The position numbers and the translations under genes are program-made. The notes under the pieces were generated by a model, which saw nothing but the letters and a program-made list of their open reading frames with translations, ran no database searches and was not told the origin of the DNA. Below, one piece after another: positions 1-42,728 of a stretch of 64,000 bases of DNA (position 1 is the first letter of the stretch; the number at the start of each line of letters is the position of its first letter). The DNA is from an uncultured Myxococcales bacterium (GTDB lineage Bacteria > Myxococcota_A > UBA9042): positions 13,314 through 77,313 of the forward strand of contig CAIXGW010000036.1 of the NCBI GenBank assembly GCA_903919145.1, given 5' to 3'.

Positions 1-859
1 CGGCCAGCGCCCACGCCCCCAACAGAGCCTGGCGCCGCTCTAGGGGATCCTCAATCACATTGAGCACAAAGCCCAGGTTGACCGCTTGCGCCGGCCTCTT
101 GTCGCCATCGGGCCGGAAGTGCGGATCCCAGCCGGCGGTGTCCAGCCCGGCGCTGCTCAGGGCCCGCAGGTCATCGCCGCGGCCGCAGCCGTAGTCAAAG
201 AACGTGGCCTCTTGCAGCAGGCCGTGGCGCCACAGCGCCTGCACCGGGGTCGACAGGCCGTTGCGGCTCAGGGCCGTCCGATGGCGCAGTACCGGCTCCA
301 CCGCCGCATCTTGGCGCCCCACCAGCTGGTGGCCCTGCACCGCCAAGCCGCGGGCCGCCAGCTCTTCCTGCCACTGCCACAGGTGGCCAATAATGGCCGG
401 GTCGTCAAAAAGACCATGCGCTGTAGCTTGTTGGGTAAGGGTCCCCCACTGCGCGCGCTGGGGATGGTCGGCCGGCAGCAGCAGCTCCTTTCTGTGCAGG
501 ATTGGCTGGTTGCCCCCAGCTGGCCAGCGGCGGTGCTGCACCGGGCCCGCGGGCAGGTCCACCGTCCAGGCGGCGTGGAGCCTGGGAAAGGCTTCTTCAA
601 AAAAATCAGGGTATTTCAGCAGGGTCACCCTTCCCTGGTGCCCGCCGCCCGCGGCCTGGGTGGGGAGGTCGAGCTTGCACACCTGCCAGCTCAGCGGCGG
701 TCCGCGGTGGCTGGCGGCCAGCTGCTCGGCGAGGGTGACCCAATGGTATTCCCGCTCCGGGACTGCGGTTTTGTGGTAATACACCGCCCCGGCGATGCGC
801 TTGCCCACCTCAGGCGCTGGGGCGGCGTGCGGCGAAGGGGCGGTCGGCTCAGTTGGCAT
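1..859 (-). CDS. DNA phosphorothioation-associated putative methyltransferase-like protein, N-terminal 286 codons (3' end lies beyond the left window edge)
   Basis: Absent from the supplied track because it runs off the edge. My translation of the minus strand from ATG 859-857 stays open to position 2: MPTEPTAPSPH...GKRIAGAVYYHKTAV...ILHRKELLLPADHPQRAQWGTL...VLRHRTALSRNGLSTPVQALWRHGLLQEATFFDYGCGRGDDLRALSSAGLDTAGWDPHFRP...AVNLGFVLNVIEDPLERRQALLGAWALA. The FDYGCGxGxD...GWDP...VNLGxVxNVIED block matches my memory of the TIGR04096-type family. The assignment is from memory, not a search. Confidence 0.5.
   Translation of the reverse strand, partial: MPTEPTAPSPHAAPAPEVGKRIAGAVYYHKTAVPEREYHWVTLAEQLAASHRGPPLSWQVCKLDLPTQAAGGGHQGRVTLLKYPDFFEEAFPRLHAAWTVDLPAGPVQHRRWPAGGNQPILHRKELLLPADHPQRAQWGTLTQQATAHGLFDDPAIIGHLWQWQEELAARGLAVQGHQLVGRQDAAVEPVLRHRTALSRNGLSTPVQALWRHGLLQEATFFDYGCGRGDDLRALSSAGLDTAGWDPHFRPDGDKRPAQAVNLGFVLNVIEDPLERRQALLGAWALA
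404..450 (-). repeat. element-related sequence, copy N (in frame inside the methyltransferase-like CDS)
   Basis: AGTGGGGGACCCTTACCCAACAAGCTACAGCGCATGGTCTTTTTGAC. G5ACCCT plus TTTTTGAC at +27..+34, exactly as in B. Uses CTT and TTT codons. Confidence 0.4.
587..635 (-). repeat. possible degenerate element copy P (inside the methyltransferase-like CDS)
   Basis: GGGAAGGGTGACCCTGCTGAAATACCCTGATTTTTTTGAAGAAGCCTTT. GTGACCCT as in copy I, CCTGA at +11..+15 as in D and E, and a T7 run encoding Phe-Phe with TTT TTT. Confidence 0.25.
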
Positions 860-947: not shown

Positions 948-1553
948 ATGAAGAATCAGCAGCGCTCTGGCGACTCTGGCCCGCAACAACCTGCCGTCGA
1001 TATCGGCGCTCTGTGCAGCCGCCACTTTGCCTGGCGCGACCTGCTGCACTGCGGCGAGACCTGGCAGCGGCTGGCGCAACAGGGAGGGGGACCCTCGCTC
1101 AACCTGCCTAAACAGTTGGAGACTTGGCGGGGCCTGCAGGAGTTGGCGCGGCGGCTGTTGGACCCGCTGGTCGATCGCTTTGGGCCGGTTCAGCTGACCT
1201 ATGGCTTTGCCGGGCCAGAGCTGACGCGGCACATTGGCGGCCGCATCGCGCCCAAGCTGGACCAGCACGCCGGCAGCGAACTCGACCGCAACGGGATGGC
1301 GATCTGTGCCAGGGCGGGGCAGGCGGTGGATCTGCTGGTGCCCGGCACGGCCAGCGATCAGGTGGCGACCTGGATCCGCGCAGAATTGCCGTTTGACCGG
1401 CTGTATTTCTATGGCGCCGACCGCCCCCTGCACCTCAGCTTTGGCCCGCAGCACAAGCGGCAGGTGGTGGCGATGGTCCGCGGGGCCAGCGGGCGGCTGG
1501 TGCCGCGGCTGTGCAAGCCTTGGGCCCACCTGTCTGGCGGCGATGCCAGCTGA
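948..1553 (+). CDS. putative Zn hydrolase with peptidase M15 / DD-peptidase (hedgehog-type) fold
   Basis: Track ORF 933..1553. ATG 948 preceded by GGGGAGG (935-941) is the better start. DQHAGSELD (H-x6-D) and a later GQAVDLLV strand resemble M15-type metal and active-site segments. Balanced composition, unlike the overlapping shadow frames. Confidence 0.45.
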   Translation: MKNQQRSGDSGPQQPAVDIGALCSRHFAWRDLLHCGETWQRLAQQGGGPSLNLPKQLETWRGLQELARRLLDPLVDRFGPVQLTYGFAGPELTRHIGGRIAPKLDQHAGSELDRNGMAICARAGQAVDLLVPGTASDQVATWIRAELPFDRLYFYGADRPLHLSFGPQHKRQVVAMVRGASGRLVPRLCKPWAHLSGGDAS

Positions 1554-1656
1554 TTCAATAATTGTGTGGAGTTACCCAAGGGTGGCGAAGTTGACGCCAC
1601 AGGTGGCTGGCAAGCGGTGCAGCCCGCCGCGTCCCGCTTTGCATCCCTCCAACCCA

Positions 1657-2988
1657 TCAATCCCTGACACGAACCTCGCTCCACCGCTCCGCCAGCTCTG
1701 GCCACTGGGTCGAGGCGCCGCCGCTTGCCACGTGCCGCACTGCGTCCTCTGCGCTGGCCATCGCGTGGTCCAGGTTGCAGTGCAGCCACAGCCCCTGCCG
1801 CCCCGCCGGCCACAGCCGACCCGACGCGCACGCATGCCGCAGCGCCAGCCGCCAGCGCGGCAGCCAGCCTCGGCGAAACAGCGGATACACCGCCGGCAAG
1901 AAGCGCTGGACCACCTCAGAGACCTCTGCCTCGCGGCTGAGGATTTTGGCCTGGGCCAGCTGCCGGCGCAATTCGCCCAGGTCGCCGGTAAAGTCGCGGT
2001 CCGCCGCGTGCCGACCCTGGGGAATCTCCACGCAGAGCACTCGGCCGCGCCCGTGCGGATGCCCCAGGAAATTGCCGACCTCGCTGACCCGCCCGAACCA
2101 GAACTGCGCCTCTGGCGTGTACCAGGTATCCACCGGGCCGGGCTGGCCATCGGCAACCACCAGCCACAGCAAGAACAAGCCGCGGTGATCCAGCTGGGCC
2201 GCCAGCTGCTGGTCGGGGGTCAGCGCGGCCGACAGGTGGCCGGTGTGGACCACAGCATCCGCATCCAGGTTGGCCAAATCACCATGCTGCAAGCTGAGTT
2301 GACATAGGGTCACCCTCGCACCGCTCTGCGTCGCCAGCTGGGCCAGCCCGTCCATCCACGCGCCAAAGCCGCCGCGCGGATGCAAGAACTCGCCGCGCTG
2401 GGGGCGCCACAGCAGCTGCCACGGGGCACTGCTCGATACGCGCTGCTTGGCGCAGCTCTGGCTCAGCTCGGCCGGGTCCAGGCCCCAGACTTTGTCGGCA
2501 TAGGGGCGGTAGAAGGCGCGGTAGGCCGCCTCGCCGCTGCGCGACCGGACAAATTCGCCAAAGCCTATATCGCTTTGCGGCTCTGGTGCGCGCTGGCGTT
2601 CCCAGTGGCGGCCGCTCAGGCGCGCGTGCACCAGGCTGCCCAGCAGCTCTCCGCCGCCGCGAAGGCCCAGCCCCTGGGCGAGATCGGTCAGCCGCAGCGG
2701 GTAGTTGAAGGACCTGCCGCCGACCAGCACCAGCCCGCGCCGCCGCCGCTTCTCCAGCGGAATGCGCTGCGCCAGCTCGGCCACGGCGGGCACCTGCAGG
2801 GCCGGGGCGTGCAGCCGGTGAGCACCCAGATCGCAAGGCCAGCCAGCCACTGGCTGCGGCGCCAGCAGCCCGCCGACCTGAGCCTCGGGGCCCAGCAGCT
2901 CGACCTGCCAGCCCGCCTGGGCCAGCCGCCAGCCGGCCGTCAACCCCGCCGCACCGCTGCCAACCACGATCGCCTTGCGGGTGGCCAT
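1657..2988 (-). CDS. FAD/NAD(P)-binding oxidoreductase (amine-oxidase / phytoene-desaturase-like fold)
   Basis: N-terminus MATRKAIVVGSGAAGLTAGWRLAQAGWQVELLGPEAQVGGL is a classic GxGxxG dinucleotide-binding fold. 443 aa. The start abuts the stop of the upstream gene (2989). Confidence 0.8.
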   Translation of the reverse strand: MATRKAIVVGSGAAGLTAGWRLAQAGWQVELLGPEAQVGGLLAPQPVAGWPCDLGAHRLHAPALQVPAVAELAQRIPLEKRRRRGLVLVGGRSFNYPLRLTDLAQGLGLRGGGELLGSLVHARLSGRHWERQRAPEPQSDIGFGEFVRSRSGEAAYRAFYRPYADKVWGLDPAELSQSCAKQRVSSSAPWQLLWRPQRGEFLHPRGGFGAWMDGLAQLATQSGARVTLCQLSLQHGDLANLDADAVVHTGHLSAALTPDQQLAAQLDHRGLFLLWLVVADGQPGPVDTWYTPEAQFWFGRVSEVGNFLGHPHGRGRVLCVEIPQGRHAADRDFTGDLGELRRQLAQAKILSREAEVSEVVQRFLPAVYPLFRRGWLPRWRLALRHACASGRLWPAGRQGLWLHCNLDHAMASAEDAVRHVASGGASTQWPELAERWSEVRVRD

Positions 2989-3591: not shown

Positions 3592-3597
3592 ATTCTG

Positions 3598-4359: not shown

Positions 4360-4431
4360 GGGCTGACCTGGCGTTTGTGGGCCCTGCGTGACATTGCCAT
4401 GGCAGAAGGGCGAGCCCTGTCGCTCAGCGCC

Positions 4432-5769
4432 TCAGAACAGAAACGCCACGCTGCTGACAAACTTTGGCGCAAAATCCCAAGCGCCTGAAGCCACATCGCG
4501 GCGCACGCCCCCCGCCGCGTTGGAGACCAGCTGCACCTCGTTCTTCCAGACATAGCCCTCGATCGGCCGGTAGTTCAGGCCGGCGGTCAGCTTGTCGACG
4601 TCAAACTGGTTCAGCGCCGCTTGGTTGGTGTCGGTCTGCTCGTAGCGCAGCACGGCCGTCATCACCGAGTCGGTCAGATCGGCGGGCAGCAGCTGCCACA
4701 GCCACGGGATCGTGAAGTGCAGGTTGCTCTGCAGGTACCAGCCCTGCATGTCGGTAGGGATCGGCGCGCGGCTGTTGGCGGGGCTGCCGGCAGAAAACCC
4801 TTGCACATAGCCCGGATCGATAAAGGCCCGCACGTACTCGCCTTGGAACTCCAGTCGCCCAAGCCGCGCCGTCAAGTCCGCAGACACCATCTGGATGCGC
4901 CGCTGCTGGTCGTCGTATTCGCCGCGGTAGCCAGAAAGGCCCAGCTCCAGCTTGAGGTTGGGTGCCCAGGACAGCCGGCCGACCAAGGCCTTGTCGTCAT
5001 TGTTGTCTTCGCCCTTGCTGCCCACTGCGCCCTTGGTGCCCATGCCGTCGGCGATCTTGGCATCCAGCCCGTTGATGGCATAGACCTCATAAGCCAGCGT
5101 CTGGTCGCCGAATTCAAACTTGCCCAGGGCCCCCACGCCGGTCTCAAACCACGTCGACGGCGTAATCGTGGTCAGCGGCAGCGGCCGTTCGCTGAGGTCC
5201 TGGGTCGGCGCGTCGTGGCGCAGGTTGTAGGCACCAAACGGCACCAGGATGATGCCCGCTCGCAGGGTCAGCCACTCGGTCGCTTTGAAGTCGACCACGC
5301 TGAACTCAAGAATCGCTTCGCCTGCCTGCAGTTGCCCATCGCGCTTGCTGGGGCTGCCGCCAAACTCGATCTCAAACTCGGTGCTGGTAGAGATCCGCGG
5401 GTGCATCTGGCTGTAGAAGAACAGCACGTAGCGGTGGGCGTTAAAGAAGCTGTCGCGGCCCTGCTCGTTGGTGTACTCAATCTCGCCGTAGCCGCCAATC
5501 GTGGTTTTGTTGTGCACGCTCAGCAGCTTGTCAGAGATGTTGTCCAGCAAGGAGGTGCGGCGGTACATCTCGGCGCGGGCATCGTTGTCGTTGGGCTGGC
5601 CGTGGCCCACGGTGGGAGCCATGGCCGCGCCATCGTCGTCCAGTTCCAGCTTGGGGCCAGAGGACTCCACTGTCGGAGTCACGGCGGCGGGCGAAGCCAC
5701 GGGATCGGCTGCCGCGACGGTGGGCAACAGCCATGCCAAGGGGATTGCAAGAAACAGTAGTCTAAGCAT
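4432..5769 (-). CDS. outer-membrane beta-barrel (porin-like) protein
   Basis: Signal peptide MLRLLFLAIPLAWLLPTVAAADP, alternating beta-strand pattern, aromatic girdle residues, C-terminal ...SSVAFLF ending in Phe. AGGAA RBS 6 nt before ATG 5769. Confidence 0.7.
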   Translation of the reverse strand: MLRLLFLAIPLAWLLPTVAAADPVASPAAVTPTVESSGPKLELDDDGAAMAPTVGHGQPNDNDARAEMYRRTSLLDNISDKLLSVHNKTTIGGYGEIEYTNEQGRDSFFNAHRYVLFFYSQMHPRISTSTEFEIEFGGSPSKRDGQLQAGEAILEFSVVDFKATEWLTLRAGIILVPFGAYNLRHDAPTQDLSERPLPLTTITPSTWFETGVGALGKFEFGDQTLAYEVYAINGLDAKIADGMGTKGAVGSKGEDNNDDKALVGRLSWAPNLKLELGLSGYRGEYDDQQRRIQMVSADLTARLGRLEFQGEYVRAFIDPGYVQGFSAGSPANSRAPIPTDMQGWYLQSNLHFTIPWLWQLLPADLTDSVMTAVLRYEQTDTNQAALNQFDVDKLTAGLNYRPIEGYVWKNEVQLVSNAAGGVRRDVASGAWDFAPKFVSSVAFLF

Positions 5770-5792
5770 GGTGTTTCCTCAGGGTCCCCCTC
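5747..5792 (-). repeat. element-related sequence, copy K (G-run half plus downstream half; on the porin gene start)
   Basis: GAGGGGGACCCTGAGGAAACACCATGCTTAGACTACTGTTTCTTGC. The first 12 nt are identical to B. The ATGTTATCTCC segment is replaced by GAGGAAACACC. The ATG start is at +12 as in B. AGACTA at +18..+23 is identical to B, and TTTCT lies at +27..+31. Confidence 0.5.
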
Positions 5793-5829
5793 GACACAGC
5801 GCGGGGATCGGTCGGCGTTTGGCCGCCAG

Positions 5830-6933: not shown

Positions 6934-6987
6934 GGGGAGGCTCCGGGAATTGCCCTTTTGGCGTGTGGGTTTGTAGAGTGATGGCCG

Positions 6988-7770
6988 TCAGGGTTGGCAG
7001 ACGTGGTTGTCCTTGTTGTTGGTGACGCAGCGCTGCGGCTTGCCCTCTTTGGCCGGGCAGTCCTGGTCGCGGAAGCACTGAAAGGTGCGCGCGGCGGTGG
7101 TGCTGACCTCGCCCAGGCCGGCCTGACACACCAAGCCACCTGGCGAAATAGCCAAACAGCGCTTGCCTTTGGCGTCACAGCACTGACTGGTGGTGCACTC
7201 GCCCTGGCTGAGCACCGCGCTGCCGTCATTGTCCTTGACGCAGCACACCGCTAGGCACTGGCTGCTGCCCGGCTCCTGCGCGCAGACAATGCCGGTCTGC
7301 AGGTTGGGGTTGACGCCGACCCAGGTCACGGTGCCGTAGTAGGGGTCCACGACCTTTTGGCCCGGCTCGCCGCGGTGGGTGTCGTAGTACTCAAACACGC
7401 CGGGGCGCAGAAAAGTGTGGCGCCACCACGCGAATTCCTTGCCTTTCTCGCTTCCCATCGGCCCGCCGCGCTGCAGGCTCGGCGAGTACAGCTCGACCGG
7501 AGAGCTCAGGCTGGTCAGGTCAGTCGGCACATCGGGAGCAAAGTTGCGGAACTCCACGGTCTGGCCTACCTCGACCACCAAGCACGGCGGGTTGGCGGCC
7601 CCCATGCCGACTTCGACCATGTGGTCGGCCTTGACCTGCGCAGCGGGCGAGACCTGCGGGCCGTCGGGATGCGGTGCGCAGCCGGTCAGGGCCGCCAGCA
7701 AGCCGACGCAGCAGGTCGCCCGAACAGTCCCCAGGGCAATGTCTGATCGATGAAATCGAAGGGTTTTCAC
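6988..7770 (-). CDS. lipoprotein with cupredoxin-like N-terminal domain and Cys-rich C-terminal domain
   Basis: Lipobox LLAALTGC. VVEVGQTVEFRNFAPDVPT...GVFEYYDTH resembles a cupredoxin beta-sandwich but lacks the Cys copper ligand. The C-terminal 90 aa have about 15 Cys (CLAVCCVKDND...TSQCCDAKGKRC...). Overlaps the upstream gene by 4 nt. Confidence 0.55.
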   Translation of the reverse strand: MKTLRFHRSDIALGTVRATCCVGLLAALTGCAPHPDGPQVSPAAQVKADHMVEVGMGAANPPCLVVEVGQTVEFRNFAPDVPTDLTSLSSPVELYSPSLQRGGPMGSEKGKEFAWWRHTFLRPGVFEYYDTHRGEPGQKVVDPYYGTVTWVGVNPNLQTGIVCAQEPGSSQCLAVCCVKDNDGSAVLSQGECTTSQCCDAKGKRCLAISPGGLVCQAGLGEVSTTAARTFQCFRDQDCPAKEGKPQRCVTNNKDNHVCQP

Positions 7771-9260: not shown

Positions 9261-9299
9261 AGGCGGGCTCCGGATGGCGGGTGCTGCGGCGAGTGATAG

Positions 9300-9320
9300 T
9301 GAAAGTGAATGTCACTTTCA
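9300..9320. promoter_or_regulatory. perfect 9-bp inverted repeat (candidate operator) just downstream of the -10 element
   Basis: TGAAAGTGA-atg-TCACTTTCA. A/T-rich compared with its surroundings. Overlaps the predicted transcription start of the GT-C gene. Confidence 0.5.
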
Positions 9321-9325
9321 GTAGC

Positions 9326-9355
9326 GTTATACCCCAGCACGCGGCAGACCGTCAA
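9326..9355 (-). promoter_or_regulatory. sigma-70-like promoter for the GT-C gene
   Basis: On the minus strand: TTGACG (9355-9350), 18 nt, TATAAC (9331-9326). About 65 nt upstream of the GTG start at 9260. Confidence 0.5.
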
Positions 9356-9379
9356 GATCGCGACTTAACGCGTCCGTTA

Positions 9380-9426
9380 CGGAAAAAGACTAGCAACGAC
9401 AAACAGATAACATTGGGTCCCCCTCT
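9380..9426 (-). repeat. dispersed G-run/ACCC[A/T]ATGT element, copy A (intergenic)
   Basis: AGAGGGGGACCCAATGTTATCTGTTTGTCGTTGCTAGTCTTTTTCCG. Lies between the 1227-aa gene stop and the GT-C gene promoter. T5 at +27..+31 counted from the A of the core ATG. Confidence 0.7.
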
Positions 9427-9591
9427 GTACAACTGCCACCGCCGCGGCGCACCGGCAGCTGCCGTGACAGTCGCGTGACCAGCGGATTCCGCTGAGGCTG
9501 CAGAGGCCGCCCGCCTGCGCATCGACCGGTCAGTCAAGAGAGGACTCAACAGAATTAGGGTGTTGTGCGTGGCTGGCCGCAAAGGCGGCGG

Positions 9592-12500: not shown

Positions 12501-13275
12501 CCGCCAGCGCCACCTGCGCCGCCCCTCCTGCGCTGACATCTATCGGCAGGGGCACGCCTGCTTCTTCTTGCCAAGCGGGCGGTGCTGCTGAGCCACCGCC
12601 GTCTCTTAGGGCATCCAGTCCGGACATCAGCCTGCGCGACCATGGCTTTACCTGCTGCACGACCGTCAGATCGGCCGGTAGCTGCCCCACTGCGACTCCC
12701 AGCCGCGCCAACGCCATCGCCCGCTGGACCCGCTGCGCCGCCGCACCTTGCGCCACAAGGCCTTGCAGGGGCTGCCCTGTCTCGCGGTTGCCCAGCGGTT
12801 GCGCCAACGCGCCATGGTGGACCGCCCGCCATAGCGCCTGGGTGGCCGCGCGATCTCCTTCCACGCCCAGCGGTTGTAGCAGTTCTGCTGCCCGCAGCCA
12901 CTGCTGGGCCGCCGCCTGGCCGTGCAGGGCGCCGTCTCCCAGCCAGGCTCCCAGCCACGCCGCCTCGCCGCTGCTGGCGTGGGCAATCGCCACCGCGCTG
13001 GCCCCGTCCCGCCGCGCCGACCTTGGCATCAGCTCCTCTACCGCCTCCGGGCAGCCCTGGGACCACAGCAGGCACAGCCAGACCATCTGCCGGCGCGCCT
13101 CTGCCGCCAGCTCGGGATCGTTGAGGTGGTCGCGCGCCCATTGCCCGGTCTCGGCAGGGTCAGCGTCGGGGTGCCAAGCGGCTTTGGGCGCCGAGCACGC
13201 CGCCAGCCCAGCCAGGCAACCTGTCAAAAACCATAGTCTGCACAAGGAGATAACATAGGGTCCCCCTCTACTCAT
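9592..13275 (-). CDS. large lipoprotein: beta-sandwich + TPR-like helical region + DUF3857-like + degenerate transglutaminase-like domain (catalytic Cys replaced)
   Basis: 1227 aa paralog of the upstream gene with the same domain order. It has QGDRAALFYALARRLGADACLV where the paralog has FGDCKDKATLIAALLGELGIDAEV. Lipoprotein signal LWFLTGCLAGLAAC. The annotated ATG overlaps the upstream stop (ATGA). An in-frame TTG at 13245 directly precedes the signal peptide and is an alternative start. Confidence 0.75.
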   Translation of the reverse strand: MSRGGPYVISLCRLWFLTGCLAGLAACSAPKAAWHPDADPAETGQWARDHLNDPELAAEARRQMVWLCLLWSQGCPEAVEELMPRSARRDGASAVAIAHASSGEAAWLGAWLGDGALHGQAAAQQWLRAAELLQPLGVEGDRAATQALWRAVHHGALAQPLGNRETGQPLQGLVAQGAAAQRVQRAMALARLGVAVGQLPADLTVVQQVKPWSRRLMSGLDALRDGGGSAAPPAWQEEAGVPLPIDVSAGGAAQVALAVEHPGIQRLQVRWRGGGALTVGVRAERQLLAWLDGERLDHPESGLAATVKNLSPGQHRLDVLVAAAADGDPLWLAWLADAPPLGAPAPPPAGPELPPELDLVLQRAGQLLADPAVQVLNWWQQRFPKALLPALRGLFAGSTPQGGEAVDQVRAAWPLHGQALLLEAQRHLDSGNPQAALEQLDLLAQPAPRPVVEVKSGEVDRPGQALLPSAAARLARVRALQLLGLPDLGHQALAGEPVRTCAQRQAVWELALEFGYRPLLRSWAPTAMADDCPHLGVVAAQLLQSAGESKRSADALALAATRPALARQARQRLLQTAALAGEAPPQGPSWLSDVAQEQWQAAQQAWLRKNPGAAQRALGSLVTAAGPTLAQRQQALRAGAVPPWTAWLRNGSQIAAQADDPQLVSGARLAWLLDQEVVVLLPGGGAIRRVHQVLRVLADDAAEAVGEVRIAQGADLELARTLLADGTALPPADTADKETVSLRGVEAGTAVEYAQIVYVEPEDPATGATRLDPFLLQAYDGPIRESELVVLVPDGVTATLEASAHAPAPDVKRVGEFTVYTYRAHQVPRARQEPRAARAELAVASVRLSAQANLASVVEPWQEALAAMVQRPSAQLQAWQEQAALQPEGRERWQALARRIAQHVKQQHEGGLPGSATAALDQRQGDRAALFYALARRLGADACLVRLRPLAREPASLAADPLDWPMELVVIRRAGTDLWYDPGLEGGLIDHVRAGLRGRPGLLVGCQNPSAAAMVTVPPLGDGLDIREISGDLVWSADGAVTGHVQETLGGGVAALIRQFLASTPTGERDALLADLAGSSFPGLKLSWLGAWDLDSPSGPLVLRYGVTAKPSTQRETNLDLGLYPAELGKTYAGLPQRRTDLLLGYATDLRLQLRVHSLGKSIQPLGSLKAAHRLLQASRTTTALPDGLQLDYRLAVTPGLVGPEDYPAAAQALRAVDTAEQLRLSR
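13223..13269 (-). repeat. dispersed element, copy B (on the start region of the 1227-aa lipoprotein gene)
   Basis: AGAGGGGGACCCTATGTTATCTCCTTGTGCAGACTATGGTTTTTGAC; about 69 percent identical to copy A over 47 nt. In-frame TTG at +12 starts the lipoprotein signal peptide. T5 at +27..+31. Confidence 0.7.
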
Positions 13276-16200
13276 GGCGCCACCTCTGGGCCGACCGCGA
13301 TCTCTGTACGCAGGGCGGCGTCGACCTGGGCCAGCCAGGCGCGGAACTCGGGGTAGGCCGCCGCAGAGACGCGCACCTGGGGGATCTCCAACTGGTGGAT
13401 CAGCTGCACTCCGCCGCCAACAGGCTGGGCCTGCAGCTCAAAGCGACAGCCCTGCCACTGGAGCTTCTGGTGGGCGGGCAGGTTTTGGGCGCGCCAGCCA
13501 GGGGGCAGCAGCAGTCGCACGGTCTCGGTCTCATGAATGGGCGCTTCAAGGACCAGCGCCACCTGGCGCGTCTCGGCCCGCGCCAGCACCTCCTGCCAGG
13601 GCCGCTGGGGCCGCTTGGGGGCGAGCAGCCAGTCGCTGCCCTGGCGCTGACCCCAGGCGGTGAGGCGACCGTCCAGCTGAGCCGTTACCGTGTCTGCCTG
13701 CGGATCGACGCCGCTGACCTGCACTTGGGTAGCCTGTAGACTGGGCCAGCGCTCGGCAATTTCGCTTTCCAGCTTGTCTTTGCGGGCGCTGGTCGCCAGC
13801 AGCTGCCGCGCCATGGCCGCCGCCAGTCCTCGCCACTGCCCCGACCAGTGCAGGGTCGCGCCGCCTTGGCCGTCCAGGCGCAGCTCGGCGGTGGACTGAT
13901 CGAGTTCGTTGGCAAAATCAGCGGTCGGCAGCGACTCCAGCTTGGCGCCGCGCGGGCGGATGCGCAGGGCCATGCCGCCGGTGTCGCCGGTGGGCAGCTC
14001 CAGTGGACCGTGGTGGGTCGCCGTGGCGTCCAGCCACCAGCCGAGCGCTGGCACCCAGGCAATGGCGTGGTTGAAAACGCCCAAAGAGGCGATGCCGTCG
14101 CTGAGCTGTCCGTGGTCGGCAGTGCGCACCAGAGCCACCTCAGCGTCGATACCCAACTCGCCTAGCAGGGCGGCAATGAGTGTCGCTTTGTCTTTGCAAT
14201 CGCCAAATTGACGCTGGGCCACCTCTCTGGCGCTGTGCGGCTTGATCGAGTGGATGCCAAACTCCAAGCCCACGTAGCGCACCTGGCTGCGGGCGTAGTC
14301 GTACACCGCGCGCACCTTGGCCTCGGTGGTCTGCTTGCCCTGGGTCAGGCGGGCGGCCAGCTCGCGCAGCAGCGGATCGGTGCCGCGGGCGGGCAGGGCC
14401 TCGCGCAACAGCCCCTGGTACCACTGCACGACCTCTGGCCAGCCGCCAAAAGACGAAGCGTGCAGGTAGGCCAGCAGCTCGGTGGCCCCTGGGCCCTGGA
14501 CATCGGCGGCGGCGGCGGCAAAAGGCCCCAGCGTCCAGCTCCACTGCTGCCATGGACCGCCCTCATCGGCGCGACCCACAGTCTTGATTTCCGGCAGAAA
14601 ATTCTGGTCTGGCTGGGCGTGATCGCGCACCTTGGCGTGCAGCGCCATGCCCTGAGGCAACCGAATCGCCACTTGGGTCTCGCGCACCGGCACCACGTCG
14701 CTCAGCGGCACCAGCTCGCCAAACACCAGGCCAAAGGGCGCTGGCGCCAGGTCATGCACCGCGTGCTCAATGACTACGGCGTCGCCCGGCCGCAGGTTCT
14801 GAAAGGTCAAGGTCAGGCGCTCCAGGTCAAAATACATGCCCGAAGCGTCCTCGGTGAACCGGTCGACTGCTTGGCTGACCTGGCGCTCTATCCTGCCATC
14901 CGCCCGCACCACCACCGCCTGAAGCACGCTGGCCTCTGACAGAGACGGGGCATAGTCGATCTCGCTTTGGTGGCTGCCCGGCGCTCCGGGTCCCAGGTAC
15001 CAGACTTCCGCTTCATAGCGGGCCTGCTGGCCGTTGCCCAGGCTGTGCATCAGCGTCTGTCTCAGGCGGATTTCTACTGCATGGGTGCGGGGTTGACTGC
15101 GCTCGCGCTGCACCATGGCCAGCAGATCGCGGCGGGCCTCGGCATAGAAGGCGCTGCCTTGGGCCAGCAGCTGCAGGCGCGCCCGCAGATCGCTGCGCTG
15201 GGGCGAAAGGGCTGTCGCTATGCGCAGATGCACCACTGCCTCCTGGCGCTGACCCTGGCGCTGCGCCAGCTGGCCGGCCAGGTCGTGCCACTGGGTGCGG
15301 CGCTGACCCGGCGGTACCCGCAGCAACAGGGCCTGAGCCATCGATAATTCGCCATCCTGCAGCCGGTAGCGCGCCAGGTTCTCCCACAGGCGGGTGCGCA
15401 GCGGTGCCATCTGCAGCAGCTTGGCGGCCTCCAATTCGGCCTTGGCCAGCTGCCCTGCTTCGGCCAGGGCGGTCACCCACTCGCCGCGAGTTTCAGGGAC
15501 ATCAAGCAATTGCACGGCCCGCGCGTGGAGATCCGCCGCCGCCCGCCATTGTTCAGCCGCAGCCAGGCGGTGGGCCCGATCGCGCAGCAACCGCGGCACG
15601 GTGGGCCATTTTTGCAGGCACTGCAGCAGTAGGCCGTTGGCGGCGCGGTCGGCGGCCATGTGGCTCCAGATCGCCACGCGGGTCCGGCAGGCATCCACGC
15701 TCTCCAATTCGGCTTGGCGACCGGTCTGTTCGGCCCACTGCTGCCACTGGCGGTGGGCCTCGGTGGTCTGCCCGGCCTGGTCCAGCGCGCGGGCATGGGC
15801 CACCAGCAGCGTGACCTCGGCAGGCAGGCGCTGCCGCCACGCCGCCAGCCGCGCCACCCGGTCGCCGGCCTCTCCGGGTAGCAGGGCATGGGCCACGGCC
15901 AGGTGGGGCAGCGCCGGCAGGTCGGCCACGTCCAGCGCCAGCAGCCGCTCTTCCAGGGGCTGGGGCATCGGCCAGCCGTGCCAGGCCATCTGCAGCAAGG
16001 CCGCAGCCAATTCGCCTTGCAGGGGGCTGTTTTCCGCCCAGCGCAACCCGGCGACCCGGTCGGGCTCGGCGGCCACTGGCGGCGGATCTTCTCCCGCCAC
16101 CGCCGACGCTCCCACCGGCAGCGCAGCGCTCTCTACAGCCAGCGGAGCCCCCTTGGCATCCAGCACCCGGATCGACAGCGGCAAGCTCGCCCCCGCCGGC

Positions 16201-17129
16201 GCCAGCTTGACCAGCAGCCGCTGCCAGCCCGGCCGCAGTACCGCCGCCGCATGGTCGACCGCCGGCAGCGCCACAACCGCGGGGTCAATGCCGTAGGTCT
16301 CAGGCTTGGCGGCGATGCCCGGAAGGTCCTTGCCTTGGGCCGCGAGCTCCTTGCCCCCCAGCCACAGCCGCGCCGGCCCATCGATGCCCAGCTGGATCGT
16401 GACCGGCCCGGCCTGGTCTGCCCGCTCAGGCCTGATCCAGCTCTGCACATAGATCAAGGCGTCGTCGGGGCGGTCGACCAATTCGTCCAGCATTACTGTG
16501 GTTTCTGGTAGGGTCCCCCTCTGGTTCTCTGCCGTCAGGCCCTGCCCATGGCCGCGCGGCACGGCTTGCCAGCTCACCGGGCCCTGGCGACCGCGCCAGC
16601 TGGATTGCGGCGTCGCGGCCGGGCGCTGCATCGCCTCTGCCTCGACCTCAGCCACCCGCGCCAGCGCTGTGCCGTGCTCGTCGCCAAACGGCCCCAGCCA
16701 GCTCAGCGCCGTCACTTGGCCCAACTGGCCGCCGCGGGGCGCTCGCACCTGCTCTGCCAGTCGCTGCACCATGGCCAGCGCCGGCGAGTGGACCATGGCC
16801 GCGTGGTGGGCCCAGTCCGCCTGCAATTCACTCAGGGCCTGCTTGAATTGCGCCGGAGGCACCAGCGGCATCAGCCGGGCCAGCTCCAGGGCGCCGGCCA
16901 GACTGGCGGCCGGGTCGGGACTCCGCCCTTTGGCACCAGATCCGGTCAAGGCGGCGACCAGCTGCCCCAGCCGCAGCTGCTCGGTGGAGGCCAGAGGCTG
17001 CTCCGTTTTGGCCAATACCTCTATTTTCTTGGCATTTGCCGCAGCGGCCAGCCCTGCAACGGCCAGCCAACCAACAGCGGCAGCGGCCAGCCAGGCGAGC
17101 TTGGGCGGGCGGGTGGATCTTGGAGTCAT
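13272..17129 (-). CDS. large secreted protein: TPR region + DUF3857-like + transglutaminase-like cysteine protease core
   Basis: 1285 aa with a signal peptide. Core RQFGDCKDKATLIAALLGELGIDAEVALVRT...FNHAIAWVPALGWWLDAT gives the Cys-His-Asp arrangement of transglutaminase-like enzymes (Cys codon 14196-14198). 4-nt overlaps with both neighbours. Confidence 0.85.
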   Translation of the reverse strand: MTPRSTRPPKLAWLAAAAVGWLAVAGLAAAANAKKIEVLAKTEQPLASTEQLRLGQLVAALTGSGAKGRSPDPAASLAGALELARLMPLVPPAQFKQALSELQADWAHHAAMVHSPALAMVQRLAEQVRAPRGGQLGQVTALSWLGPFGDEHGTALARVAEVEAEAMQRPAATPQSSWRGRQGPVSWQAVPRGHGQGLTAENQRGTLPETTVMLDELVDRPDDALIYVQSWIRPERADQAGPVTIQLGIDGPARLWLGGKELAAQGKDLPGIAAKPETYGIDPAVVALPAVDHAAAVLRPGWQRLLVKLAPAGASLPLSIRVLDAKGAPLAVESAALPVGASAVAGEDPPPVAAEPDRVAGLRWAENSPLQGELAAALLQMAWHGWPMPQPLEERLLALDVADLPALPHLAVAHALLPGEAGDRVARLAAWRQRLPAEVTLLVAHARALDQAGQTTEAHRQWQQWAEQTGRQAELESVDACRTRVAIWSHMAADRAANGLLLQCLQKWPTVPRLLRDRAHRLAAAEQWRAAADLHARAVQLLDVPETRGEWVTALAEAGQLAKAELEAAKLLQMAPLRTRLWENLARYRLQDGELSMAQALLLRVPPGQRRTQWHDLAGQLAQRQGQRQEAVVHLRIATALSPQRSDLRARLQLLAQGSAFYAEARRDLLAMVQRERSQPRTHAVEIRLRQTLMHSLGNGQQARYEAEVWYLGPGAPGSHQSEIDYAPSLSEASVLQAVVVRADGRIERQVSQAVDRFTEDASGMYFDLERLTLTFQNLRPGDAVVIEHAVHDLAPAPFGLVFGELVPLSDVVPVRETQVAIRLPQGMALHAKVRDHAQPDQNFLPEIKTVGRADEGGPWQQWSWTLGPFAAAAADVQGPGATELLAYLHASSFGGWPEVVQWYQGLLREALPARGTDPLLRELAARLTQGKQTTEAKVRAVYDYARSQVRYVGLEFGIHSIKPHSAREVAQRQFGDCKDKATLIAALLGELGIDAEVALVRTADHGQLSDGIASLGVFNHAIAWVPALGWWLDATATHHGPLELPTGDTGGMALRIRPRGAKLESLPTADFANELDQSTAELRLDGQGGATLHWSGQWRGLAAAMARQLLATSARKDKLESEIAERWPSLQATQVQVSGVDPQADTVTAQLDGRLTAWGQRQGSDWLLAPKRPQRPWQEVLARAETRQVALVLEAPIHETETVRLLLPPGWRAQNLPAHQKLQWQGCRFELQAQPVGGGVQLIHQLEIPQVRVSAAAYPEFRAWLAQVDAALRTEIAVGPEVAP
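16476..16523 (-). repeat. element-related sequence, copy L (in frame inside the transglutaminase-like CDS)
   Basis: CAGAGGGGGACCCTACCAGAAACCACAGTAATGCTGGACGAATTGGTC. A 14-mer AGAGGGGGACCCTA is shared with B. AATTGG at +27..+32 as in E and F. In-frame ATG at +17. Confidence 0.45.
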
Positions 17130-24837: not shown

Positions 24838-24897
24838 GACCCAGATCAACCGGACTCGACCCAGATCAACGGGGGCTGACCCAATGTTATGGCCGCT
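24838..24897 (+). repeat. three tandem 20-nt units, each starting GACCCA[G/A]AT; the third unit is the core of element copy C
   Basis: GACCCAGATCAACCGGACTC / GACCCAGATCAACGGGGGCT / GACCCAATGTTATGGCCGCT at 24838, 24858 and 24878 (exact 20-nt period). A degenerate fourth unit, GACCGCAGCCGGACCT, lies at 24822. Confidence 0.7.
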
Positions 24898-24917
24898 TAG
24901 AGAAAGAGCAATTGCCC
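24871..24917 (+). repeat. dispersed element, copy C (upstream of the Y1 transposase gene)
   Basis: GGGGGCTGACCCAATGTTATGGCCGCTTAGAGAAAGAGCAATTGCCC. AATTG at +27..+31, as in E, F and L. Confidence 0.7.
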
Positions 24918-24955
24918 GCTGAGGTGGTCGCCTCCAGGATGTCCCTCTCCTTGGC

Positions 24956-26193: not shown

Positions 26194-26230
26194 GTCCGGC
26201 CAAGCAAGCTGCCGACCAGGAAGGGCGGCG

Positions 26231-26278
26231 CGGAGGAAGTAATGTGATGTCAGGGATTTGACATTGGGTCGGGGGCGG
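26231..26278 (-). repeat. dispersed element, copy D (downstream of the Y1 transposase gene, inverted relative to C)
   Basis: CCGCCCCCGACCCAATGTCAAATCCCTGACATCACATTACTTCCTCCG. C-run instead of G-run. CCTGA at +11..+15 and ATTACT as in E and F. Confidence 0.6.
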
Positions 26279-30709: not shown

Positions 30710-30723
30710 CTGCTGAGTGTGTG

Positions 30724-30775
30724 CACCTGACCCTATGTTATTTTCCTGAGATTACTGTGGAATTGGCCGTATTCC
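30724..30775 (+). repeat. dispersed element, copy E (52-nt direct repeat, first copy)
   Basis: CACCTGACCCTATGTTATTTTCCTGAGATTACTGTGGAATTGGCCGTATTCC. Hairpin GGAAT-N7-ATTCC at 30759-30775. Confidence 0.75.
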
Positions 30776-30912
30776 GACTGCCGGATGTGCAGGGGTGGGC
30801 GCTCCAGCCTGTCGACCTCGCCCAAGGCACGGTCAGATGCCAGCACTTGGCCGCAGCGCCAGCCGCCGTGAGCGACCGGTGCCCCGCGCAACCCACCGGT
30901 CTGGCTCTTGCA

Positions 30913-30964
30913 CACCTGACCCTATGTTATTTTGCCGAGATTACTCAGGAATTGGCCAGGTTCC
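30913..30964 (+). repeat. dispersed element, copy F (52-nt direct repeat, second copy, 189 nt downstream of E)
   Basis: CACCTGACCCTATGTTATTTTGCCGAGATTACTCAGGAATTGGCCAGGTTCC; 45/52 identical to E. The hairpin is kept as GGAAT-N7-GTTCC (G-U possible only on the + strand RNA). Overlaps the stop codon and last 7 codons of the convergent HAD gene. Confidence 0.75.
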
Positions 30965-31639
30965 TGAAGGGCGAGTGCCCAGGGCCAGCCGCGCGAGCCG
31001 GCTGATTCCGTCCAGCACGTAGTCTGCTCCCATGGCGTGGACGGCGCGGCTGTGGTCTTGATCGACCAGGGCACAGCGCACGCCAGCGTTGCGAGCCGTG
31101 TGCAGGTCAATCCAGGAACTGCCGACCATGAGGGCGCGGTCGCGGGCGTCGGCTTGGCCGCTCAGCTGGTGCACAAGGGTTAGAAGGCCTTCTGGGTCGG
31201 GCTTGCGTGGCACGTCGCCATCGCCTGCCAGCAGGTACTGGAAACGCCCGGCGATGCCCATCTGCTGCAGCAGCTTGAGCGATGGGTTGAGGGGTTTGTT
31301 GGTCAGCACGGCCATGTGCACCCCGGCGTCGCTGAGCTCTTGCAGCACTTCGGGCACTCCGTCATAGAGATAGGCCCTGGCTCCCAGGTGTTTTTCGTAC
31401 TCGGTTCGGAACTCGGGCAGGCGCTCGCTGATTTCCAGGTCCGTTGGCACCGGGCCGGTCAGGGCCAGGGCCGATCGCAGAATCACGCGCAGGTTCTCTC
31501 CGGGCCATTGGCGCACCTGCTCGACGGTCAACTTCGGCCGGCCAATAGCCTGCAGTTGATCGTTCAGGGCGTCGGTCAGGTCGTCAAACGTGTCGACGAG
31601 CGTGCCGTTGAGGTCGAGAATCAGGAACGGGTAGCGCAT
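30941..31639 (-). CDS. HAD-superfamily phosphatase (phosphoglycolate phosphatase-like)
   Basis: MRYPFLILDLNGTLVDT (DxD-type motif I as DLNGT), VLTNKP (motif II), GDGDVPRKPDP / MVGSSWIDLHTARNAG (motifs III/IV). The track ORF extends to 31675; I prefer the internal ATG 31639. The last 7 codons plus the stop lie inside repeat copy F. Confidence 0.75.
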   Translation of the reverse strand: MRYPFLILDLNGTLVDTFDDLTDALNDQLQAIGRPKLTVEQVRQWPGENLRVILRSALALTGPVPTDLEISERLPEFRTEYEKHLGARAYLYDGVPEVLQELSDAGVHMAVLTNKPLNPSLKLLQQMGIAGRFQYLLAGDGDVPRKPDPEGLLTLVHQLSGQADARDRALMVGSSWIDLHTARNAGVRCALVDQDHSRAVHAMGADYVLDGISRLARLALGTRPSGTWPIPE

Positions 31640-38370: not shown

Positions 38371-39045
38371 TCAAGGGTGATGGATCACCGCCACCGCGTC
38401 CAGGTCAAAGCCGCCCGAGCTACCCTGGTATTGGTTGAGCCCGGAGTCGGTGATCCTCACCAGTCGCCACGGCCCAGGGCCTATGGCGCCAAGCGCCTGC
38501 AGGTCAAACGCGTCGCCCCCGGCCAGCGCGACATCCACTGGCGAAATCCCGTTGCCCGGCGCCGAGAAGACGGGAGTCACCCCCGCGCAGCCCGGATAGT
38601 CTGGGGCCAGCTCGGCGTGGCACGGCCACTCGTGCCAGGTGACGCCATCGGCGCTGATCGCCACCCGGCCGGTTTCGCTGAACCCCGCAAAGGCATTCTC
38701 AAACACCAGCAGATCCGCTCCTGGGCCGTCCACCAGCGGCTGGTCATCCAGCGCCACCACGATGGTGCCGCCTTGGCCCAGCGAGACCACGTCCAGACCT
38801 CCCGCTGTGGCCCCGCCGCCCTGGGGTGCTCCCAGGACCACGGCGGGCAGCTTGTCGGCCCCAAAGCCAGCGTTGGGCCCAGGCGCAAAGCTTACCACGC
38901 GATCTGCAAATAAATCCAGTGACTTAACATTGGGTGGCCCCCCGTATTCACTGTCGCATCCCGGCAAGGCAATGGCAGGCAGGGCCGCCAAGCCCGCCAC
39001 CGCCAGCCTTACCCCGCGGCCGCCCAGCTGAGAGAGCGCTTTCAT
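38371..39045 (-). CDS. lipoprotein, function unknown
   Basis: Lipobox AIALPGC, then a Gly-rich beta-type domain (DLLVFENAF..., VRITDSG...GFDLDAVAVI). Contains in-frame element copy G (codons 33-48). The start abuts the stop of the upstream lipoprotein gene. Confidence 0.6.
   Translation of the reverse strand: MKALSQLGGRGVRLAVAGLAALPAIALPGCDSEYGGPPNVKSLDLFADRVVSFAPGPNAGFGADKLPAVVLGAPQGGGATAGGLDVVSLGQGGTIVVALDDQPLVDGPGADLLVFENAFAGFSETGRVAISADGVTWHEWPCHAELAPDYPGCAGVTPVFSAPGNGISPVDVALAGGDAFDLQALGAIGPGPWRLVRITDSGLNQYQGSSGGFDLDAVAVIHHP
38897..38943 (-). repeat. dispersed element, copy G (in frame inside a lipoprotein CDS)
   Basis: GGGGGGCCACCCAATGTTAAGTCACTGGATTTATTTGCAGATCGCGT encodes ...YGGPPNVKSLDLFADR... 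using TTA, TTT and GCA codons. Confidence 0.55.
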
Positions 39046-39645
39046 CTACGGCTTCTTGGTCATCTTGGTCCAGCCAAAGCCGCCGCAGCCGGCCTTGTCC
39101 AGGTCCTTGTCGTTGGCAACCAAGGTGCTGGCCTTGGCCAGGTCAATGGAATCTTTGCCATAGTCTACCGTGCAGTAGTAGAAAACGTTGGCCTTTGGCT
39201 CGGTCCACACCTGCTTGCTGAACTTGTTGGGGCCATACTTGTCATCGGGTGGGTTCTGGGTGTAGGCGACGTTGGCGGCGTTGTCGAAAGACGCGATCTT
39301 CTGTGGGCCCCACTTGTCGGCGGCGATGGTCTCTTCGCTGCCAAAGTTGGTGGTCCAGGTGCCCAAGAGCTCGATCGCAGCGCCGGCCCCAGAGTCCGCG
39401 CCGTCCTGGGCGCTGGTGGTGTCGCTGGCGTTGGCGGGGGTAGAGGACTCGCTGTCGCAGCCCGTGCCGGCGATCGCAAAAAAGCTAGCGATAGCAAGGC
39501 AGTTTGTGCGGGTCGCCCTCCACATGGCGGTTGGGGCCCTGCCGGTCCGCATCGGCAAGAGTGGCGCCGCCCCTAGCGGCTGCGTCGGACTGCTCCGCGT
39601 GGGGTCCTGTTGCGTTGTCTTTTCGCGATTTTCAAACAGTTTCAT
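39046..39645 (-). CDS. lipoprotein, function unknown
   Basis: Lipobox FFAIAGTGC. The start is probably an internal Met (39552 or 39525), because the first 30-40 aa look non-genic. Mature domain LLGTWTTNFGSEETIAADKWGPQ...VFYYCTVDYGK. Confidence 0.6.
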   Translation of the reverse strand: MKLFENREKTTQQDPTRSSPTQPLGAAPLLPMRTGRAPTAMWRATRTNCLAIASFFAIAGTGCDSESSTPANASDTTSAQDGADSGAGAAIELLGTWTTNFGSEETIAADKWGPQKIASFDNAANVAYTQNPPDDKYGPNKFSKQVWTEPKANVFYYCTVDYGKDSIDLAKASTLVANDKDLDKAGCGGFGWTKMTKKP

Positions 39646-42675: not shown

Positions 42676-42682
42676 GGGTTTC

Positions 42683-42728
42683 CGTGTAGATGCGAGTTAT
42701 TCCAAGCAGATAACATTGGGTGCCCCGC
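42683..42728 (-). repeat. dispersed element, copy H (intergenic, antisense to flanking + strand genes)
   Basis: GCGGGGCACCCAATGTTATCTGCTTGGAATAACTCGCATCTACACG. Begins 8 nt after the stop of 41098..42675. Followed on the + strand by the direct repeat AGATCTCCAC/AGATCTCCGC (42732-42751). Confidence 0.65.

Follow-up and report, generated by a model that had tools for sequence, protein, structure and literature searches.

The window and its repeat unit

We analysed a 64-kb stretch of DNA from an uncultured Myxococcales bacterium (contig CAIXGW010000036.1; 67% G+C), hereafter the window, in which a short sequence unit recurs both between and within genes, with three copies (B, K and I) at the 5' ends of genes for exported proteins. 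Together with 7 kb of adjoining sequence (L017), the sample of the source genome came to ~71 kb. The first 19 kb of the window form a row of genes on the minus strand, which in order of transcription encode CotH, a 1285-aa DUF3857/transglutaminase protein, a 1227-aa DUF3857 lipoprotein (gene B), proteins of 497, 260 and 367 aa, an OprO/P-type porin (gene K), an FMN_bind protein, an Aq_1264_TM protein and an amine-oxidase-like protein. Gene starts were inferred from the sequence and from orthologues. The window sequence recurs near-verbatim in lake-water metagenomes, and the named homologues of its porin belong to Myxococcota/Myxococcales (Vulgatibacter, Archangium and others; 48-53% identity). 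A cyanobacterial origin was considered, the highly iterated palindrome HIP1 being mildly enriched in the window (10 copies), yet the homologues point to Myxococcota.

The head of the unit, GAGGGGGACCCT, occurs in the window at four exact and three one-mismatch sites, where 0.47 are expected, and none of 100 shuffles reached seven. The core, GACCCWATGTYA, was found over the whole window at eight exact and four one-mismatch sites (12 in comparison to 0.24 expected; strands 7:5), and the top-enriched 11-mers of the window are variants of ACCCWATGTTA. When eleven candidate copies were aligned without gaps, the features in common were the head, an often present ATGT, a TTG around position 24 and a run of T around positions 40-44. 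The resemblance extends significantly, and in register, to the tails (positions 13-48), where seven pairs agree at 20 or more of 36 positions (null P = 8e-4 per pair), and the leave-one-out tail scores of B, I, K, c9425, c2317, c731 and c39520 were exceeded solely by members of the family, while those of c632, c1084 and c16521 were unremarkable. Scanning with the tail matrix only recovered further sites, whose 'heads' are merely ...CTGACCCT or ...GCACCCA. In the profile of all 18 candidate sites the A/T fraction is 0.30 in the upstream 30 nt, 0.23 in the head and 0.47-0.63 at positions 11-50, and it is back at background (0.28-0.33) from position 51; the step persists in the seven sites picked by the head alone (Mann-Whitney U test, p = 1e-5). 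The step, taken with the head and the core, therefore defines a discrete unit of ~50 nt that combines a G/C box with an A/T-rich stretch, and its layout can be summarized as a G/C-rich box (consensus GGGnGACCC), WATGTYAT and then ~30 more A/T-rich bases (the A/T-rich part spans ~38 in all). Copies occur at ~1 per 4-5 kb over the 64 kb, the exact heads being clustered within the first 17 kb. Those inside genes are read in two different frames, so the likeness is at the level of nucleotides and not of peptides, as an earlier reading made from the letters of the window alone (the sequence-only reading) had proposed.

In copy B (minus strand), the head is followed by ATGTTATCTCC, an in-frame TTG (13245-13243), AGACTA and TTTTTG (13229-13224), and the tail has an A/T fraction of 0.63 against a background of 0.33. 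In copy K, also on the minus strand, the head GAGGGGGACCCT (5792-5781) is followed by GAGGAAACACC and by the ATG of the porin gene (5769-5767; MLRLLFL...). As the sequence-only reading had noted, AGACTA stands at the same offset in both copies; in B its CTA is ancestral and its AGA newly derived.

Table. Copies of the repeat unit and associated features (positions in the window unless stated otherwise)
Feature	Position	Strand	Description
Copy B	13219..13268	(-)	head GAGGGGGACCCT 13268-13257; core GACCCTATGTTA 13262-13251; tail to ~13219; T-run 13229-13225
c9425	9376..9425	(-)	closest paralogue of B; intergenic, 167 nt past the gene B stop, upstream of the next gene's true promoter
Copy I	54974..55023	(+)	start of TPR-CHAT gene; head GCGGGTGACCCT; likely GTG 54978; AGGAG 54963-54967
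c39520	39471..39520	(-)	head GAGGGCGACCCG; signal-peptide region of 199-aa lipoprotein gene, downstream of cobalamin riboswitch
Core copy 30729	30723..30775	(+)	first of two ~55-nt direct repeats; begins 14 nt past the stop of a plus-strand gene
Core copy 30918	30912..30965	(+)	second direct repeat; overlaps 3' end of convergent HAD gene and provides its stop codon
Core copy 24878	24872..24921	(+)	divergent intergenic region, ~130 nt upstream of plus-strand gene at 25009
Core copy 26270	26227..26276	(-)	intergenic; antisense to downstream gene at 26361
Core copy 42722	42679..42728	(-)	CACCCAATGTTATCTG; intergenic, 39 nt upstream of DUF808 gene and antisense to it
Core copy 38936	38893..38942	(-)	in 224-aa lipoprotein gene directly past lipobox cysteine (GGPPNVKSLDLF)
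c2317	2268..2317	(-)	in conserved 443-aa amine-oxidase-like gene (ARVTLCQ)
c731	731..780	(+)	antisense, in variable part of conserved 644-aa gene
c16521	16510..16521	(-)	exact head, A/T-rich tail without specific likeness; variable loop of 1285-aa DUF3857/transglutaminase gene
c1084	1084..1095	(+)	exact head in plus-strand gene (codes GGGP); no tail likeness
Copy 25851			inside gene, sense strand
L017:4352			just outside the window; antisense inside gene
Gene B likely start	13273..13286	(-)	Shine-Dalgarno GAGGTG 13286-13281; ATG 13275-13273; overlaps upstream TGA 13274-13272 as ATGA
In-frame TTG of gene B	13243..13245	(-)	start of the sequence-only reading; no Shine-Dalgarno sequence; less well supported than ATG 13275
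Gene B lipobox	13195..13206	(-)	L-A-A-C, codons 24-27, then SAPK; cysteine kept in all orthologues
Porin initiation hairpin	5733..5797	(-)	predicted; outer stem 5797-5786 (includes K head) pairs with 5744-5733
Promoter of 497-aa gene	9301..9355	(-)	sigma-70-like; TTGACG-N18-TATAAC and perfect palindrome GAAAGTGACATTCACTTTC; downstream of c9425; conserved in four relatives

Strictly intergenic positions are taken by seven of 16 copies (K, c9425, 24878, 26270, 30729, 30918 and 42722), against 4-7 copies inside genes in the 71 kb of genome seen; intergenic DNA makes up 11% of the window (P = 9e-4). Copies B, I and perhaps c39520 lie on gene starts, and c2317, 25851, 38936, c16521 and c1084 lie inside genes on the sense strand. 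For the eight exact-core sites the corresponding numbers are five intergenic, two on gene starts and one in a gene. Copies in coding sequence fall in the most variable parts of orthologous proteins, and seven of the nine extragenic copies are at most 160 nt from a start codon. Orientation follows local transcription in 13 of 17 copies (P = 0.02).

The sequence-only reading had placed the copies at a fixed distance from start codons. Its letters and offsets are correct; however, the start codons vary in position relative to the first base of the head: ~-7 for B, +24 for K, +5 for I and either -5 or -125 for c39520. The constant distance is the one from head to T-run inside the unit, not the one from unit to start codon. 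The same reading expected copies to be enriched between -25 and +35 of start codons. They are, above chance (P = 0.005 to 0.0004) and all in genes for exported proteins, but this holds for only three to four of 18 copies: the excess at the starts of exported-protein genes is real and confined to a minority.

The motif had six single, unrelated matches in the public genome contigs scanned and one in the metagenome scan, on an unrelated contig of 42% GC, both in collections that do not include the source organism; in the literature on the head sequence and on myxobacterial repeats nothing relevant was found.

The unit in related genomes

Orthologous loci were compared in four related populations, represented by L016 (porin 94% identical), by L019 and L022 (one sample, a third close species), by L010, L020 and L023 (91%) and by the more distant L012, L014 and L021. 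All five close genomes share the K head, its Shine-Dalgarno (SD) sequence and ATG unchanged, and L012 and L014 lack them. In ~100 kb of sister loci (L019 with L022, L016, and L020 with L023) the core motif does not occur, the orthologue of c2317 in L019 excepted. At the sites of B and c9425, L016 and L019 carry the variant GGGG(A/G)CCTTGTGTCA, that is, ...GACACAAGGGGACCTTGTGTC-ATG... and ...ACAGGGGGCCCTTGTGTC..., whereas the window has GACCC(T/A)ATGTTATCT at both. Since B and c9425 differ alike from their sisters, two paralogues have changed in the same way within one lineage. L010 and L020 show a faint likeness to the unit before B and nothing at the position of c9425. The sister-species loci hold two to three copies of their own variant in 16-28 kb. 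A third copy of the sister variant (GATCCGAC(A/T)CTGCCCCCCCTTGTGTC), apparently inverted, lies in the N-terminal coding region of the FMN_bind gene (L019 12480-12530, L016 11513-11534), and in L019 it carries a tandem duplication of GATCCGACTCTGCCCCCC.

The folding of the two versions also differs. The sister-species heads at B and c9425 are predicted to form hairpins of -13 to -14 kcal/mol (z -1.9 to -2.7) with a GGA/GGG loop directly before ATG; 89% of cells pair across six sequences, with G-U used and two pairs changed on both sides, the structure having been drawn from the same sequences. The heads in the window fold at -1 to -10.6 kcal/mol (most at -4 to -7; z -1.07 to +1.12), like shuffled sequence. 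No RNA fold common to the copies was found, as the 76-86-nt and 31-nt folds match shuffled sequence in all cases except K.

The individual copies have different histories. c16521 adjoins an insertion of ~30 nt (27-33 nt by relative) that is unique to the window lineage, and its head reads CCAGTAAGGGAATCAAC in L019. The two copies 30729 and 30918 are direct repeats of ~55 nt, ~85% identical, within an insertion of ~180 nt between convergent genes that is again found in the window lineage only. A strain ~95% identical over this stretch (run X5) keeps the arrangement; at window position 30713 it has an extra TGAGTGTGCGCACCT, a tandem duplication of the 15 nt directly upstream of core copy 30729. 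Near another core copy, 24878, two tandem GACCCAGATCAAC units lie directly upstream (24830-24875 (+)), in a stretch of ~700 nt that is apparently non-coding (24310-25009). The signal-peptide region at c39520 differs entirely among three species, is ~80 nt longer in the window and has been remodelled in the window lineage only. In contrast to these length changes, 38936 arose in place, through clustered C-to-T and C-to-A changes relative to L022 in the variable linker past the lipobox cysteine, with no change of length. The head of c2317 (ARVTL) is coding sequence of ancestral origin that L010 and L020 also have, and its tail recurs in L019 only.

Gene starts and the porin initiation hairpin

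In the sequence-only reading, gene B began at TTG 13245, which would open the signal peptide M-C-R-L-W-F-L-T-G-C. Comparison with orthologues leads to a different assignment. GAGGTG sits 5 nt upstream of ATG 13275, L016 and L019 have GGAGGTG and the same ATGA, and the distance from the ATG to the signal peptide (24, 51 or 72 nt, depending on the species) keeps the frame in all three. The conserved SD sequence and the ATGA overlap decide the matter: gene B most likely starts at ATG 13275, translationally coupled to the upstream gene, and the TTG, which has no SD sequence, is the poorer candidate. The lipobox is LAAC followed by SAPK, its cysteine being codon 27 and not the cysteine of L-T-G-C. 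With this start, the head falls in codons 3-6, where it is read S-R-G-G-P, and the unit in codons 3-19. An in-frame ATG 9 nt past the head is found only in L016 and L019 (MSWRWLGF... and MSSCWLGF...); this internal ATG is ancestral and has become ATC in the window (13251-13249), and the ATG directly after the head of gene B in the window is out of frame and opens a 10-codon open reading frame (ORF). A programmed frameshift at TTTTTGA in B was considered and rejected, as the heptamer is unfit and the frames are explained by the ATG-to-ATC change relative to the sister species. The ATGA overlaps (13272-13275 and 17126-17129, present also in L016 and L019) join the CotH, 1285-aa and 1227-aa DUF3857 genes. 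In L010 and L020, a 300-nt spacer with its own promoter replaces the overlap before the third of these, gene B, and the operon structure has therefore changed within the clade.

The start of gene K is secure: GAGGA stands 6 nt upstream of ATG 5769, and a clear signal peptide follows. Gene I probably starts inside the head of its copy, at GTG 54978 (head position 5), which follows AGGAG and yields MTLCHVRAV... with a charged n-region and MTLCHVRAVAHVFAISSALFCGSAVPPAQA, then Q. The GTG chosen in the sequence-only reading (55002), unlike GTG 54978, has neither an SD sequence nor a charged n-region. The head itself does not act as the SD sequence of the following gene at either of the two sites where this was considered, for it lies downstream of the start of B, and at K, where it ends 11 nt ahead of the ATG, the separate GAGGA is used.

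Around the porin start we found a structure that the other copies do not have. In the predicted hairpin, the SD segment AGGAAACA (5779-5772) pairs with UGUUUCUU (5756-5749) in codons 5-7 to form an inner stem, the AUG (5769-5767) lies in the loop, and an outer stem is formed by the head strand GUGUCGAGGGGG together with UCCCCUUGGCAU in codons 9-12. The fold is predicted at -29.6 kcal/mol (z = -2.86). Its two stems comprise 20 pairs in the consensus structure; five of these vary, of which four stay paired throughout, one of them via changes on both sides. The 58-nt spacer is 86-98% identical across five genomes. The third positions of codons 1-20 are 90-100% identical, while those of the remaining codons reach 68-76% between species and 87% within the near-identical pair L010/L020. 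Only at K were SD sequence and AUG found enclosed in a stable fold that is kept across relatives. This arrangement, with the SD sequence paired to codons 5-7, the AUG in the loop and an outer closing stem, is that of SD-sequestering hairpins such as translational operators and RNA thermometers, as is the freezing of synonymous sites in the first 20 codons; unlike the known examples, the K hairpin matches no Rfam family. It is specific to K and separate from the repeat family. Judged from fold and conservation, it probably hides the SD sequence and the AUG and thereby sets translation or stability of the porin message.

No promoter was reported at any copy by the consensus scan for sigma-70, and the start codons of B, K and I sit within the unit or upstream of it. 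Spacings of sigma-54, extracytoplasmic function (ECF) and Bacteroidetes-type promoters, checked by eye at the copies, gave no consistent second element. The terminator scan reported no intrinsic terminator at any copy, the T-run being ~27 nt past the head. Small ORFs opening at the core ATG were dismissed, since their peptides have 4-12 residues and are mutually unrelated.

Conserved signals of other kinds lie in the same spacers. A 19-nt palindrome, GAAAGTGACATTCACTTTC (9301-9319 (-)), stands just downstream of TTGACG-N18-TATAAC and is kept in L016, L019 and L020. The related GAAATTGAAAGTCGT (~4340-4352 (-)) lies inside the TTGGAA-N17-TATCAT promoter of the FMN_bind gene, and the two look like a common operator for the 497-260-367-porin operon and the FMN_bind operon. 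The spacer behind gene B contains the direct repeat GGTCACGCGAC-TGTCACGG (9462-9480 (-); GTCAC 11 nt apart), which is kept in L016 and L019 and loosely in L020 and resembles a site for a response regulator of the PhoB/OmpR type; a similar TGCCATGGCAATGTCACG follows the porin gene (~4380-4400 (-)).

Farther along the window, a cobalamin riboswitch (39830-39986 (-); 33.8 bits, gathering score 31.5) lies upstream of the lipoprotein genes 39645-39046 and 39045-38371. It was the only match above gathering score to Rfam 15 in the window, and at E <= 1 positions 1-17500 gave nothing relevant. Its leader is well conserved in L022, and beside the two-lipoprotein locus L023 has four tandem 65-nt units (...CAACAGTCTCGACAGCTCCC...GGTTTTGGCTCGTCCC...; 16766-16971 (-)). 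No transfer RNA or transfer-messenger RNA gene was found. At the left end, the 644-aa protein (window 1-859 (-), continuing into L017 to 5072) has more than 2500 homologues at E <= 0.001 in a library clustered at 50% identity. It has no Pfam domain, its invariant motifs DYGCGxGDD and NLGFVxNVIE suggest a methyltransferase-like fold, and it appears to represent an uncharacterised, widespread family.

Nature and possible origin of the unit

We tentatively regard the unit as a short repeat dispersed within one lineage, which DNA under weak constraint tolerates and which has in part been co-opted to encode signal peptides, a reading to which we give a probability of about 0.45. It occurs in many copies in one lineage, lies in extragenic DNA, at gene ends and in variable regions, sometimes adds length and changes in concert between paralogues, which is how dispersed repeats behave. 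Such a repeat would spread, or be homogenised, at the DNA level within the lineage by a templated process, and its copies would persist where constraint is weak, as in signal peptides, variable loops and the junctions between genes. If a copy landed on a 5' end, it could serve as part of a signal peptide. Two of the three frames of the unit give arginine (AGA/AGG, from the head) and then hydrophobic residues (from the T-rich tail), frame a being used in B and frame b in I and c39520, and copies on 5' ends would be found in exported-protein genes because of this coding capacity; in gene B, the T-rich tail would be read as the hydrophobic core. We infer both the mode of spread and the co-option; what was observed is the set of copies with their composition step and contexts, the fact that sister species lack them or have them in altered form, and the concerted change at B and c9425.

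Several points weigh against the repeat. No terminal inverted repeats or target-site duplications were seen at the copies, and no transposase, RAYT (REP-associated tyrosine transposase, REP being the repetitive extragenic palindrome) or recombinase gene in the 64 kb. Copies c2317 and 38936 add no length in comparison to orthologues without them, and the lack of a length gain at several copies is harder to square with insertion than with selection or with drive acting in place; some probability thus goes to a process that resembles uptake signals or is driven by repair, or to selection of a binding site. The sense-strand bias hints at a function in RNA or in the course of transcription. Of the putative copies, c632 and c449 are probably coincidences, because they encode motifs conserved across a protein family of more than 2500 members (RLSLLxYPxFFEEAFP and LT..AE..GLFDD), and some other in-gene copies may be likewise. 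The sample is 64 kb and 7 kb of one genome, the numbers of copies are low, and membership of the family is least certain for the copies inside genes. The estimate of ~0.45 takes account of the mode of spread and of the in-place copies.

Two alternatives give the unit a regulatory role. In one, it is the DNA binding site of a regulator or nucleoid-associated protein, and the copies mark an envelope and phosphate-related regulon. The G/C box with TGTYA, sometimes with a second TGY 11 nt on, does resemble direct-repeat sites of the OmpR/PhoB type, and TGTTAT-N5-TGTCGT at c9425 and ATGTCAA-N4-CTGACAT at 26270 look like tandem half-sites; however, the second half-site is present in a minority of copies, and a Pho box was rejected as such, WATGTYAT resembling CTGTCAT but few copies having the second half-site at 11 nt. 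The enrichment of copies in intergenic DNA and their proximity to start codons agree with such a site, as do the neighbouring genes, which include the OprO/P-type porin, PHO4-PhoU and PhoH, and the further conserved operator-like repeats of the same intergenic regions. Copies inside genes, antisense or between convergent genes do not, nor does the failure of the consensus scan to find promoter geometry at the copies, and the sites are not kept upstream of orthologues while the adjacent true promoters and palindromes are. We consider this explanation unlikely. The other is the one put forward in the sequence-only reading, a shared element on the initiation regions of exported-protein mRNAs, through which an RNA-binding protein or small RNA would control initiation (for example a CsrA-type protein reading GGA in the loop of a GGG/CCC mini-hairpin). 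It draws on the 13 of 17 copies on the sense strand of local transcription, on the three to four copies at exported-protein starts, on the strong hairpins of the sister versions at B and c9425 with their GGA/GGG loop just before ATG, and on the K head being part of a conserved SD-hiding hairpin. Against it, the geometry relative to the start codon is not fixed, most copies lie off gene starts, many of them deep in genes or in DNA unlikely to be translated, and the head hairpins of the window are no stabler than shuffled sequence and share no fold. Turnover of the sites between species with 91-94% porin identity would moreover need a change in the specificity of the trans-acting factor, and none of the RNA sequencing runs searched contains the locus. 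One post-transcriptional regulon is thus an unlikely account of the copies, and the mobile or spreading 5' piece that the same reading offered as its alternative comes closer to the evidence.

The remaining explanations differ in whether a sequence element exists at all. A DNA uptake signal, or an iterated motif like HIP1, would be spread by molecular drive, through biased uptake or repair with homologous replacement, and would show lineage dialects. The core with its A/T-rich flank is like the Haemophilus uptake sequence, some copies arose in place by clustered substitutions without a change of length, the variant at orthologous sites differs between sisters as a dialect would, and copies occur on both strands, in coding and non-coding DNA, at ~1 per 4-5 kb. 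Yet seven of the eight exact-core copies are extragenic or on a gene start, orientation tracks local transcription instead of being random, exact heads cluster in the first 17 kb, and the sister loci hold only two to three copies of their own variant in 16-28 kb; to our knowledge, no uptake specificity is known in Myxococcota, which we also count against this explanation. That the unit is an uptake-signal-like or otherwise drive-propagated motif of a freshwater myxobacterial lineage, made in place by biased replacement and switched in dialect between sisters, therefore strikes us as improbable; if true, it would be the first such system known outside Pasteurellaceae and Neisseriaceae. Least probable of all, and by our estimate very improbable, is that there is no element, only chance combined with convergent features of gene starts, such as a G-rich SD sequence, ATG, A/T-rich early codons and the Phe/Leu codons of signal peptides. 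The 41 genes of the window have an unusual preference for TTT over TTC as Phe codon (260 against 164, despite 67% G+C and a third-position G+C content of ~0.83), so that runs of T in signal peptides are no surprise; conserved protein motifs account for c632 and c449, c2317 owes its head to ancestral coding sequence, and in the AGACTA common to B and K the CTA part is ancestral and the AGA part newly derived. Convergence cannot, however, produce eight exact 12-nt cores where 0.24 are expected even with one-mismatch sites included, the intergenic, antisense and convergent-spacer copies have the same core and A/T-rich tail, and register is held relative to the head and not to the start codon. Absence of an element is contradicted for the core family, and it survives for individual head-only or in-gene copies.

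Returning to the dispersed repeat, we compared it with the closest known systems. Like REP, bacterial interspersed mosaic elements (BIMEs) and other small extragenic repeats, the unit is short, multi-copy, lineage-specific and apparently mostly extragenic, often just past stop codons inside operons, and its sister-species version has a G/C-rich stem-loop. Unlike them, the window unit is not palindromic and its fold is not better than that of shuffled sequence; it has an extended A/T-rich tail and some copies in genes, and no RAYT-type gene was seen in the 64 kb examined. With Rickettsia palindromic elements and the miniature transposable elements with inverted repeats (MITEs) of Coxiella it shares the character of a dispersed repeat tolerated in variable or surface segments of proteins, in differing frames and with altered N- or C-termini. 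It is, however, ~50 nt long in comparison to 100-150, its ends (GAGGGGGACCC... and ...TTTTTGAC) do not form an inverted repeat, duplications at the flanks were not seen, and several in-gene copies add no length. The Haemophilus uptake signal sequence and the Neisseria DNA uptake sequence are similar in their ~12-nt core, an A/T-rich flank in fixed register, their presence in coding and non-coding DNA, their dialects and their origin in place; the window unit is apparently less dense, mostly extragenic and oriented with transcription. The Borrelia upstream homology box and the 5' regions of variable Mycoplasma lipoprotein genes are longer, near-identical cassettes that include the promoter and have a single reading frame. 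They resemble the window unit in that unrelated exported-protein genes share upstream sequence and leader codons at the nucleotide level, but in the window the likeness is ~55-60% over 36 nt, frames differ and most copies lie off gene starts. A shufflon or other invertible segment was not supported, as the scanned ORFs of the window contain no recombinase domain and the contigs of several runs show no alternative joints.

If the dispersed-repeat reading is true, an uncultured myxobacterium has had the ends of its genes reshaped by such a repeat, which supplies signal-peptide codons at B, I and c39520 and the stop codon of the HAD gene and which shows concerted change between closely related species. 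The porin 5' hairpin, a separate feature, is a concrete candidate for an element that controls the translation of an outer-membrane protein in this clade. For the annotation of GC-rich genomes, the likeness of gene starts to each other can stem from an overlying repeat, and start calls therefore need to be checked against orthologues.

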